A stretch of DNA of 50,739 bases from the NCBI GenBank assembly GCA_002722595.1, contig PBMO01000046.1:1-50739 (forward strand), read 5' to 3'. Below, piece by piece: positions 30,766 through 41,457 of this stretch (its first letter is position 1; every line of letters begins with the position of its first letter). Below the pieces are notes generated by a model. It had not been told where the DNA came from, did no database searches, and worked only from the letters and a program-made list of their open reading frames with translations. The translations under genes and the position numbers were made by a program. The DNA comes from Methanobacteriota archaeon. Lineage in GTDB: Archaea; Thermoplasmatota; Poseidoniia; Poseidoniales; Thalassarchaeaceae.

Positions 30766-32187
30766 CTAAACCCATTCCCAGCGACGTCCGCCAGTTGTTG
30801 TATCGATAATTCCTGTGTCAGAGATTATGTTTCCTTTGCTGGACAATCCATAGAAAAGCGATCTCGTTTCACATAGACTGCACCTCATGGCGCTGTAAGC
30901 TACAGAATATATTCTCTCTATTTCAATAGGTGGTAGTTTCGGCTGTTCTTCAATAATGGATGCAATAGATGCATTCAGTATTATTGCCATCAAATCTGAA
31001 TGGATGTCAGTAATCGAATTCCACCCTTCAAAGCATTTTCCATTAGGTGGGATTTTATTGAAACCAATGCCAATGACTACACGAACATCTTCGCCTTGTG
31101 TTTTGCCTTCAACCAAGGTCCCAGCCATTTTCCCAAGCCCAGCCCTTCCAATGTACCATATGTCATTTGGCCATTTTATTCTAACACCCATGTCTTCCAA
31201 AATTGAAGAATTTGTCCAACAGTGGCTAGGGAGTCCTTCCATAAGGGCCGTTGAAATAGAATCGATAACTGCTACTGATGAAGCAATCTGGAGCCATTCT
31301 GCACCCTTCTCTATAGATTTTCGACCAAATACCCAACTGCCCATGAAACCTTCTTTTGGATTGTCCCAATTGTTTCCTGAGAAACCCCTTCCCTTGGTTT
31401 GATGACTTGTCGTAACAAGTGAACCTGTGGGTGCATTTTCCAATTCCATAGCCACACTATTAGTTGACTCACACTTTTCCAGGTGAATTTTTATTGCCTC
31501 TTCAAAGGGCCTCCAGCATGCTATAACTGTCAGTTTTTCATCACCAATATTGGTCCATGCTACTGGCCTTGTAGCCCATCCACCACTTCGCCAAAGTTTT
31601 GGAATTAAATGGCCCAATTGGTTTGAGCTATGGAGGAGAAGTACCACACCTTTCTTGTTGAGCAGTCCTGGTCTCTGTTCGAGCAATGAGATCAATTCCT
31701 GGCACTGATTATTTTCGATCAACCCTGATTCTTCTAGTGGGCCGAGTCGGGGTGATTTTTCTGGAGGTGTGTCGAGATAAGGGAGGTTCCAGATAATCAA
31801 GTCGAAATTATCCTCTGATATTTGCGCAAAGTAATCATCTCCTGGCCCTCCTTCAATGACGTTTTCTCCACTCCATTTTATCCCATTCAATGATGCATTA
31901 CCAAGCGTCGCTGAAACAGCATATGGATTTGTATCACAGCAGAATACTTCCCAACCTCTTAGCCGGGAACTTATCGATATGGCACCACTTCCACAGCCTA
32001 TCTCAAGCACCTTCTGACCCGGCTTGAAAGGTATCTCGGCGACGACTTGATCAAGAAGACTGGTATCCTCTCTCGGGGGATAGACAGTAGGGGGAATTTG
32101 CAGATTGATATCTGGCAGTTCATGAGGTGACCAAGATATTCTGGTGGCCTCAGATTTGAGGTATTCAATTTCTCTTTTTACGTCCAA
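30766..32187 (-). CDS. birA: Fusion of a HemK-related SAM methyltransferase (N) and biotin-protein ligase BirA (C)
   Basis: The N-terminal half has SAM motif I LEIGCGSGAISI and the N/D-PPY-type motif IIWNLPYL. The C-terminal half has KGRGFSGNNWDNP (the GRGRxGRxW-like motif) and IKWPNDIW. Confidence 0.75.
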   Translation of the reverse strand: MDVKREIEYLKSEATRISWSPHELPDINLQIPPTVYPPREDTSLLDQVVAEIPFKPGQKVLEIGCGSGAISISSRLRGWEVFCCDTNPYAVSATLGNASLNGIKWSGENVIEGGPGDDYFAQISEDNFDLIIWNLPYLDTPPEKSPRLGPLEESGLIENNQCQELISLLEQRPGLLNKKGVVLLLHSSNQLGHLIPKLWRSGGWATRPVAWTNIGDEKLTVIACWRPFEEAIKIHLEKCESTNSVAMELENAPTGSLVTTSHQTKGRGFSGNNWDNPKEGFMGSWVFGRKSIEKGAEWLQIASSVAVIDSISTALMEGLPSHCWTNSSILEDMGVRIKWPNDIWYIGRAGLGKMAGTLVEGKTQGEDVRVVIGIGFNKIPPNGKCFEGWNSITDIHSDLMAIILNASIASIIEEQPKLPPIEIERIYSVAYSAMRCSLCETRSLFYGLSSKGNIISDTGIIDTTTGGRRWEWV

Positions 32188-32390: not shown

Positions 32391-32464
32391 GGGCCTGTAG
32401 CTTAGCAAGGTAGAGCGACGGGCTTTTAACCCGTTGGCCAAGGGTTCGAATCCCTTCAGGCCCG
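32391..32464 (+). tRNA. tRNA-Lys (anticodon UUU)
   Basis: Folded by hand. Acceptor GGGCCTG/CAGGCCC, D stem GCTT/GAGC, anticodon stem ACGGG/CCCGT with loop CTTTTAA, 5-nt variable loop, T arm AAGGG-TTCGAAT-CCCTT, discriminator G. No CCA is encoded. Confidence 0.93.
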
Positions 32465-32507
32465 CTCTCCTTTGCTAATTTACAGGCAGTCTTTGGGCAC
32501 GGCGCGG

Positions 32508-33107
32508 GTGAAGAAATTGGTTGTTAAGAGTTCCACAAAAAAGAGGCTAGTTGAACTTGGTGTGCAGGAAGAGCATGCACACAAGCTTGCAGACGACGCC
32601 AATATGGATGCTATTAAGCAAATGAGTGTCGAGCAGGTTGCAAAGAAAATCGGTATCGATTCTGACAGTGCTGAGATTGAGAAAATCATGGGTATCATCC
32701 GTGAACAGGGGACACGTAAGAGAACACGTTCCCGCCGAATTACAATTTCTCAGAAAGCAATTGATGATGATGATGATGCACCAAAAGGTTCAGACCGATT
32801 CAATGTGCTAAATCACCACCTTGTCCCTCACCATGAACTGATTCCAGTTGATGAAGAGGCTAAAACGCTAGAGCCTTGGGGTCTTGAAGAAGCAGATTTG
32901 GCGTCCGATGGCACACGCTTGGCTAAGGAACTACTTCCTAAAATATTGATTACCGATCCTGCAGTTCAGGTCTTGAAAGAAATGACTGAACTTGAAGATG
33001 ATGAGTTGCCTGCTGGTTGGCTGACCAATCGTGTTGTACGTGTTGTTCGGTACAGTAAGGCTTCAGGAACAACTACGGCTTACCGGCTGATTGTAGAGGA
33101 AAACTGA
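32508..33107 (+). CDS. rpoH: RNA polymerase subunit H (Rpo5) with an ~100-aa N-terminal extension
   Basis: The C-terminal 100 aa are FNVLNHHLVPHHELIP...LPKILITDPAVQ...VVRVVRYSKASGTTTAYRLIV, which is the canonical RpoH. The start is uncertain (TTG 32472, GTG 32508 or TTG 32517). TTG 32517 aligns exactly with the Met of the paralogous RpoA'' N-terminus. Confidence 0.85.
   Translation: MKKLVVKSSTKKRLVELGVQEEHAHKLADDANMDAIKQMSVEQVAKKIGIDSDSAEIEKIMGIIREQGTRKRTRSRRITISQKAIDDDDDAPKGSDRFNVLNHHLVPHHELIPVDEEAKTLEPWGLEEADLASDGTRLAKELLPKILITDPAVQVLKEMTELEDDELPAGWLTNRVVRVVRYSKASGTTTAYRLIVEEN

Positions 33108-36800: not shown

Positions 36801-41457
<4,657 letters not shown>

Follow-up and report, generated by a model that had tools for sequence, protein, structure and literature searches.

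A conserved N-terminal module on the RNA polymerase subunit RpoH of Marine Group II archaea, with a paralogue on RpoA'' and relatives on virus-like proteins

The subject of this analysis is the RNA polymerase (RNAP) subunit RpoH encoded in a window of 50,739 nucleotides (nt), the whole of the stretch that we analysed, from an archaeon of the family Thalassarchaeaceae, order Poseidoniales (assembly GCA_002722595.1, contig PBMO01000046.1, positions 1 to 50,739 of the forward strand). Comparison with orthologous genes shows the N-terminal extension of this RpoH, which an earlier note made from the letters alone had proposed, to be a real, translated addition that is found throughout the Poseidoniales, also known as Marine Group II (MGII). 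The extension contains a predicted five-helix module that recurs at the N-terminus of RpoA'' and is not RNAP-specific, a point absent from the earlier note. Archaeal RpoH/Rpo5 has been stated to have no N-terminal domain in any archaeon, the N-domain of Rpb5 being regarded as a eukaryotic invention and Rpo13 as its only archaeal stand-in (PMC3906176, PMC3479171), and a 2026 survey of small-subunit variation covered Rpo6 and Rpo8 and not the RpoH extension (PMC13257274). As our searches of the literature on RpoH/Rpo5 extensions, Marine Group II or Poseidoniales RNAP, helix-hairpin-helix (HhH) domains and magroviruses found no description of it, RpoH of this lineage is a familiar subunit whose accessory domain, shared across the lineage, has so far gone undescribed.

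RpoH is encoded by the open reading frame (ORF) 32472..33107 on the forward strand and comprises 196 amino acids (aa) when read from TTG 32517. Pfam PF01191 (Rpb5_C) matched residues 98-195 of the reading from GTG 32508 (45.2 bits versus a cut-off of 23.5), the 80-position NCBIfam RpoH model NF007129 covered residues 93-194 of the 196-aa protein with its positions 3-79, and in Foldseek searches the C-terminal part of the RpoH model resembled archaeal Rpo5 chains (E 8e-5 to 1e-3, target-normalised TM-score 0.72-0.78) as well as the C-domain of eukaryotic Rpb5. The domain is divergent, with an insertion of ~25 residues relative to the 73-position Pfam model, and fell short of the NF007129 equivalog cut-off (47.1 bits versus 83), which touches automatic naming and not the identity of the protein as RpoH; this shortfall (47 bits versus 83) probably accounts for the name 'hypothetical protein' that GenBank gives to many RpoH proteins of Marine Group II. 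Since the archaeal RpoH chains of solved structure in the Foldseek match list are only 74-78 aa long, about 92-94 residues are extra here, and by Pfam and NCBIfam ~94 residues indeed precede Rpb5_C. The helical module and the linker GTRKRTRSRRITISQKAIDDDDDA quoted in the earlier note are both present in the sequence. The gene and its immediate upstream region are laid out as follows.

32391..32465, forward strand: tRNA-Lys(UUU), called by ARAGORN, ending 51 nt before the rpoH start.
32506..32511, forward strand: putative Shine-Dalgarno (SD)-like motif GGGTGA, read from the sequence, 5 nt 5' of the start codon.
32517..32519, forward strand: most likely rpoH start codon (TTG), from the codon alignment of orthologues and the N-termini of homologues.
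32517..32711, forward strand: N-terminal five-helix module of RpoH (residues 1-65) with a predicted SAM/(HhH)2-like fold, H-type (…LADDANMDAIK…), from AlphaFold2, Foldseek and conservation.
32712..32762, forward strand: arginine-rich tether patch (residues 66-82, TRKRTRSRRITISQKAI, net charge +7), from low model confidence and charge count.
32763..32798, forward strand: acidic end of the tether (residues 83-94, DDDDDAPKGSDR, net charge -4), from model confidence and charge count.
32799..33107, forward strand: canonical RpoH/Rpb5_C domain (residues 95-196) and stop codon, from PF01191, NF007129 and Foldseek.

The rpoH start is most likely TTG 32517 rather than GTG 32508. First, of 80 species-representative Poseidoniales genomes, 76 have ATG and 4 have TTG at the codon aligned to 32517. 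Second, a G-rich SD-like motif lies at the equivalent place upstream in the 80 orthologous loci. Third, in several genomes a stop codon stands 0-5 codons upstream of the rpoH start. On these grounds we shifted the start, and the resulting protein begins MVVKSSTKK. The earlier note had correctly seen a non-ATG start shortly after a tRNA gene; its concern over this arrangement did not hold up, as 20 of the 22 Poseidoniales loci examined have tRNA-Lys(UUU) on the same strand at a distance of 43-57 nt upstream of rpoH, making such closeness the norm for the order. From this spacing it follows that the rpoH promoter would overlap the 3' flank of the tRNA gene, or that the tRNA would be co-transcribed with the polymerase operon. 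A T-run and an AT-rich stretch lie between the two genes.

A protein search with RpoH returned 971 homologues, the best 120 of which were 65-99% identical, nearly all with 93-100% query coverage (82-84% for a few truncated entries). Most homologues are 195 aa long and start with M[AV]VKSSTKK, and judging by source names together with the genome scan they come from Marine Group II (Poseidoniales; Poseidoniaceae and Thalassarchaeaceae). The closest relative among the matches was MED-G33, whose module is 96% identical. Poseidoniales sequences filled all match lists of limited length, and MGII synteny is still present around the most divergent RpoH found (P0433). Diversity at codon positions 1, 2 and 3 amounted to 0.215, 0.112 and 0.567 in the module and to 0.273, 0.161 and 0.648 in the linker, compared to 0.256, 0.158 and 0.608 in Rpb5_C. 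The extension is under protein-level purifying selection as strong as that on Rpb5_C and far beyond chance, contrary to the prospect raised in the earlier note that the upstream codons might show no protein-level conservation among orthologues. An ORF-calling artefact with translation starting near the canonical domain, to which the non-ATG start 51 nt after a tRNA gene might point, is effectively excluded by this conservation and the coding pattern of codon-position diversity, by the ATG that 76 of 80 genomes have at the corresponding codon, by the lack of any in-frame ATG, GTG or TTG between RpoH residues 58 and 97, by the conserved tRNA-rpoH spacing and by the independent paralogue that opens RpoA'' with an ATG.

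To describe the anatomy of the extension we relied on two independent AlphaFold2 runs, one of full RpoH with a 51-sequence alignment and the other of the module alone with 34 diverse sequences. Both predicted the same five helices (residues 5-13, 18-27, 30-35, 38-45 and 52-68) at a predicted local distance difference test score (pLDDT) of ~80, arranged as helix-hairpin-helix, connector and helix-hairpin-helix. Residues 66-103 had a pLDDT of <50 and the predicted TM-score of the whole chain was 0.44, values that fit a tethered module. As modelled, a disordered tether of ~30 residues joins the five-helix module to an ordinary Rpb5_C domain, and the basic/acidic linker of the earlier note is indeed predicted to be disordered, running from basic to acidic. 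Many positions of the RpoH module are invariant across orthologues, K4, K8, K9 and G15 are nearly invariant across all module families, and the net charge of the module is -2. The tether is highly conserved despite its predicted disorder: R67, T76 and S78 of the arginine patch are invariant, K68, R69, R74, K80 and A81 nearly so, and D85, D87, P89, G91 and R94 of the acidic run are nearly invariant as well. Peptides of the extension include LVELGVQEEHAHK, LADDANMDAIK and QMSVEQVAK.

Foldseek searches with the module gave no match at E<=0.001 in the PDB (all E >0.8) and nothing significant among the viral structures of BFVD. At the level of fold, the PDB search brought up the (HhH)2 domain of FANCM (9hjo_A; query-normalised TM-score (TMq) 0.72, root-mean-square deviation (rmsd) 2.1 Å over 64 columns), Hef (1x2i_A, TMq 0.64), 4bxo_A (0.63) and the N-terminus of RadA (1pzn_A, 0.55), the (HhH)2 group mostly matching with an rmsd of 2-3 Å over 58-64 columns at 11-24% sequence identity. 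The C-terminal repeats of NusA and the HhH region of NAD ligase were matched too, and SAM domains of SARM1, Ste50 and liprin matched equally well (TMq 0.61-0.68). Pfam searches with the extension and 34 diverse module sequences revealed no consistent family, HHH_2 (PF12826) being touched by only one of the 34 members (E 0.035); NCBIfam has no model for the extension, and a profile search that covered the sequences of all PDB chains (E<=10) yielded just five weak, unrelated matches. The first hairpin reads LG[VI]x with a single glycine, the canonical GhG signature being missing, and the glycine of the second hairpin is lost in many orthologues and in copies outside RNAP. On the basis that the resemblance is confined to the fold, with no sequence match in Pfam, NCBIfam or the PDB, we regard the modelled domain as a new sequence family whose fold is (HhH)2/SAM-like. 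Of the HhH-like character claimed in the earlier note, the predicted five-helix layout and the (HhH)2 fold-level matches stand, with SAM domains matching no less well, whereas a significant Foldseek match, an HHH family match and the GhG motif are wanting. The likeness to Rad51-N or to the C-terminal domain of the bacterial RNAP alpha subunit (alpha-CTD), which it had also suggested, was not recovered at profile level, hhalign returning probabilities of 2.5% for Rad51-N (residues 1-101) and 0.1% for alpha-CTD against target sequences entered by hand; only the RadA N-terminus appeared, as the fold match given above.

The earlier note had further placed a paralogue of the module on RpoA'' at 39883, in agreement with a BLASTP match in which 27 of 52 residues (52%) are identical (E 6e-17). 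A six-frame scan of the window with a hidden Markov model (HMM) of the module found no copies beyond those of RpoH and RpoA''. The N-terminal extension of RpoA'' is composed of three segments.

39883..40068, forward strand: paralogous five-helix module (RpoA'' residues 1-62), A''-type, from BLASTP and the six-frame HMM scan (E ~1e-33).
40069..40152, forward strand: RpoA'' tether with a Gly/Ser/Thr spacer and an arginine-rich patch (residues 63-90; patch net charge +7), from sequence and charge count.
40153..40275, forward strand: last part of the RpoA'' N-terminal extension (residues 91-131), before the canonical A'' core, as delimited by TIGR02389 and Rpb1_5.

The match to TIGR02389, the NCBIfam equivalog model of A'' (367 positions), starts only at RpoA'' residue 132 and that to Pfam Rpb1_5 at residue 129. 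The arginine patch of RpoA'' aligns with that of RpoH and is kept in RpoA'' orthologue fragments, and both subunits have in common a module of net charge -2 followed by a patch of +7; the duplicated unit at the N-terminus of RpoA'' is 'module plus arginine patch'. The H-type (…ADDANMDAIK…) and A''-type flavours are each conserved across the order, and a divergent MGII lineage has retained both module copies with unchanged gene order.

Beyond the polymerase, searching 1.84 billion cluster representatives exhaustively with the module profile returned 185 clusters at E<=1e-3, in which the module opens many unrelated proteins besides RpoH, RpoA'' and fragments thereof. The carriers include a 1292-aa ORFan, Cys-rich and Zn-ribbon proteins of 368-413 aa, families of ~300-340 aa and of 150-225 aa, and an 851-aa AAA ATPase (module at residues 93-145; the AAA ATPase carrier has a C2H2 finger), and in one 547-aa protein the module copy is C-terminal. 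Of the sequences retrieved, 76 proteins that extend 80 residues or more past the module fell into ~31 single-linkage groups; with a few groups probably representing frameshifted RpoA'' fragments, the real number of carrier families outside RNAP is roughly 20-30. Almost all carrier proteins are without a Pfam domain, and often only their first ~45 residues are conserved. The A''-type prevails in most families and the H-type occurs in P0243, P0254, P0244 and P0321, of which P0243 has copied the whole RpoH extension, acidic linker included. At the amino acid level the copies are ~70% identical to the RpoA'' module (86% to the RpoH module for P0243) and at third codon positions 30-55% identical, a combination of high protein identity and near-saturated third positions that argues for long-standing protein-level constraint and not recent DNA transfer. 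Near-saturation of third codon positions also led us to reject a shared RNA- or DNA-level element behind the common 5' sequence. Another candidate, P0241 (2474 aa with ~18 near-identical repeats of ~140 residues), was discarded as a false positive that had arisen from summed weak matches to KLAD..FDDVK.

The contigs on which these carriers lie are virus-like by gene content and size. A 90-kb contig encodes ribonucleotide reductase, PCNA, endonuclease VII, ERCC4, a FEN-like exonuclease and a methyltransferase among ORFans, and its size and replication-gene content fit magroviruses as described (PMC5434244). We speculate that an annotation in that work (PMC5434244) might reflect a shared RpoA''-type N-terminal module and not a polymerase subunit. 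A syntenic element represented by three loci (L082, L087 and L088) encodes a Holliday-junction endonuclease, a helicase and its own homologue of TFIIB, together with a module-bearing protein (337 or 300 aa) that occupies a fixed upstream slot and varies at its C-terminus.

L087:7074-8027 and L088:8319-9266: TFIIB homologue (Pfam TFIIB and Zn_Ribbon_TF; phrog_20431, E 1e-57).

A 155-kb carrier contig contains methyltransferases and co-directional ORFans, and one member of a carrier family derives from the 0.1-0.22 um Tara size fraction. PHROGs matches on the carrier contigs were limited to endonuclease VII, an exonuclease, a thymidylate-synthase-like protein and the TFIIB-like family. Scans of IMG/VR with the module profile, an A''-type module and an ORFan from L085 gave no confirmed relatives, the GenBank phage collection gave no match to the carrier P0410 or an 824-aa neighbour, and no hallmark capsid genes were in view on the carrier contigs, which is why we infer 'virus-like' from gene content and contig size. 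P0410 itself (L085:10001-10648) belongs, with P0303, P0316, P0323 and P0338, to a family of ~210-225 aa on a magrovirus-like contig in which the module is combined with an internal GFRGLGSLF and a C-terminal GLGSLFG. We take these motifs to resemble the C-terminal tail of aP1, the stalk protein by which archaeal ribosomes recruit translation GTPases, and the family may be a viral stalk mimic.

The polymerase genes themselves form the cluster rpoH-rpoB-rpoA'-rpoA'', of which rpoH is the first gene, and gene order is identical in the divergent MGII lineage (L090).

From 33114: RpoB, 1228 aa, downstream of rpoH.
From 36797: RpoA', 1028 aa.
From 39883: RpoA'', 524 aa.
From 41482: L30e-like ORF, after rpoA''.

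An insertion of ~140 residues in RpoA' (~415-554; 38039-38458) interrupts the match to Pfam Rpb1 domain 2 between positions 77 and 80 of the profile. The insertion itself matches nothing in Pfam, shows no more than weak hints of a zinc ribbon, and constitutes a further lineage-specific addition to the polymerase. Upstream, the divergently oriented neighbour of rpoH (30766-32187, reverse strand) encodes an N-terminal methyltransferase (PrmA/MTS-like) fused to a biotin/lipoate protein ligase domain, and the same fusion lies upstream of rpoH in L090.

What might two such units do on one polymerase? Subunit H lies close to downstream DNA and has a part in forming the open complex (PMC2847245), and the N-domain of Rpb5 has been called a 'guard rail' for the entering DNA (PMC3479171). 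In Sulfolobus, Rpo13 occupies the place of the Rpb5 N-domain and binds double-stranded DNA through a basic tail, and its authors predicted analogous factors in other archaea (PMC3479171). Because RpoH sits on the lower jaw, at the spot of the Rpb5 N-domain and Rpo13, we propose that the tethered units of RpoH and RpoA'' would flank the DNA entry channel. The arginine patches would then grip the backbone of the duplex non-specifically, probably aided by the lysine-rich first helix and hairpin (K4, K8, K9, G15), and this grip would make open and elongating complexes more stable. The helical module would in addition be a recognition unit whose ligand is common to the ~20-30 virus-like protein families, bringing the viral module proteins to the same place, whether this is the DNA at the polymerase or the modules of RpoH and RpoA''. 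We favour this combination of a downstream DNA clamp and a shared recognition module tentatively, at a confidence just short of even, and the module looks like a lineage-specific polymerase handle that viruses have copied.

Several observations weigh against such a clamp. The module is net acidic (-2), the GhG hairpins are missing, and the second hairpin is unconserved in RpoH of the MGIIb lineage and in the viral copies. Conservation is far higher than non-specific contact to the DNA backbone would usually require, extends to the extreme N-terminus and is shared by unrelated proteins, which suggests a specific partner. Likewise, the absence of the arginine patch from most viral copies implies that module and patch may differ in function. 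Where the N-terminus of RpoA'' would lie with respect to the DNA channel is assumed from structures of Pol II and archaeal RNAP, and we infer the placement of the module on DNA or polymerase by analogy.

It is possible, though on balance improbable, that the module is mainly a protein-protein docking unit, serving either a pairing of H-type with A''-type (compare XPF-ERCC1 and FANCM-FAAP24) or the binding of one conserved host factor, with viral proteins plugging on or competing and only the arginine patches touching nucleic acid. The very strong conservation of the first 35-45 residues across unrelated ORFans at saturated synonymous sites speaks for docking, as do the occurrence of both flavours outside RNAP, the copying by P0243 of the entire RpoH extension with its acidic linker, and the net acidic charge. 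The best structural matches, moreover, are to domains that heterodimerise, oligomerise or bind proteins (FANCM-FAAP24, the SARM1 SAM domain and the acidic repeats of NusA), and the TFIIB homologue encoded by one carrier element suggests reprogramming of transcription. On the other hand, viral reuse of a handy nucleic-acid-binding domain would give an identical distribution, and the fold matches are statistically weak (all E >0.8). In our assessment clamping and docking are not mutually exclusive; the bacterial alpha-CTD does both.

An ordinary, non-specific DNA-binding domain of the (HhH)2, Rad51-N or alpha-CTD type, with the viral copies as generic reuse, strikes us as distinctly unlikely. 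The five-helix topology with its fold-level matches to Hef, FANCM, RadA-N and the HhH regions of NAD ligase would suit it, as would the conserved lysine cluster and Gly15 in the first hairpin and the DNA-related nature of some partner domains (Zn ribbons; the AAA ATPase with a C2H2 finger), but there is neither an HHH match in Pfam nor a sequence match in the PDB, the hhalign probabilities are 2.5% (Rad51-N) and 0.1% (alpha-CTD), the hairpins are degenerate, the net charge is negative, and conservation is too high for backbone contact alone. That the module serves another process linked to the polymerase, such as coupling to ribosomes or translation factors, assembly, solubility or localisation, is highly improbable: the viral family that joins it to GFRGLGSLF and GLGSLFG, motifs that resemble the stalk tail, hints in this direction, whereas DNA contact explains the arginine patches and the jaw position more simply.

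The proposed clamp and recognition module can be joined into a bolder scheme, which we consider doubtful, wherein the H-type and A''-type units would be the two pieces of a lineage-specific gate or landing pad where DNA enters the polymerase, and viruses would have copied the module onto ~20-30 families of effectors to dock on the polymerase or pry it open. Under this equally doubtful extension of the same scheme, the effectors would include the AAA ATPase, the Zn-ribbon proteins and the protein with ribosomal-stalk-like tails. Were it true, the module would be a modular virus-host 'address tag' for archaeal RNA polymerase, undescribed for any archaeal system. Irrespective of this scheme, the stated rule that archaeal RpoH has no N-terminal domain is contradicted by one of the most abundant groups of surface-ocean archaea, which carries an unrelated, strongly conserved domain at the position of the Rpb5 N-domain, with a twin on RpoA'', and this would be convergence, a third independent way to decorate the DNA entrance of the polymerase. 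Its presence on virus-like proteins may give a testable entry into the interplay of virus and host transcription in uncultured Marine Group II, and the module could serve as a marker linking viral contigs to their Marine Group II hosts.

Compared with known systems, the (HhH)2 domains of XPF, ERCC1, Hef and FANCM-FAAP24 and the N-terminal domain of Rad51/RadA have the five-helix layout that is predicted for the module and provide a precedent for domain pairing, but differ in that Foldseek returned E >0.8, Pfam no HHH match, and the module has no GhG motif and an unconserved second hairpin. SAM domains, essentially eukaryotic signalling modules, match the fold equally well in SARM1, Ste50 and liprin and, as protein-protein oligomerisation modules, fit the docking alternative, although no sequence relationship to them was detected.

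The eukaryotic Rpb5 N-domain is likewise an extra domain N-terminal to Rpb5_C, on the lower jaw at the point of downstream DNA entry. The Marine Group II module is nevertheless not homologous to it: PF03871 is unmatched on the extension (no Pfam match at E<=1), eukaryotic Rpb5 chains align with the RpoH model only over its ~94 C-terminal columns (Foldseek), and an all-helical module of ~65 aa on a disordered, charged tether contrasts with the rigid packing of the Rpb5 N-domain.

Rpo13 of the Sulfolobales is the closest functional analogue for the idea of a DNA-gripping arginine patch. It too is helical and confined to one lineage, and its disordered parts are polarised into acidic and basic ones, an analogous sequence feature in Marine Group II being the +7 arginine patch in a segment of pLDDT <50. 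Unlike the module, Rpo13 forms a subunit of its own around a helix-turn-helix core, is fused to neither Rpo5 nor Rpo1C and belongs to a different phylum; the PDB-wide profile search at E<=10 gave no match to it in a set that should include the 13-subunit Sulfolobus RNAPs, the presence of the Rpo13 chain being unchecked.

Finally, alpha-CTD is a small HhH-like domain on a flexible linker, present in two copies per bacterial RNAP, that binds both DNA and regulators. It differs from the module in being bacterial, in its C-terminal position on alpha and in showing no profile similarity, the Marine Group II copies residing on two subunits (H and A''). As a tethered polymerase module in two copies, however, alpha-CTD is the best conceptual parallel for a unit that would combine contact to DNA with a docking site.

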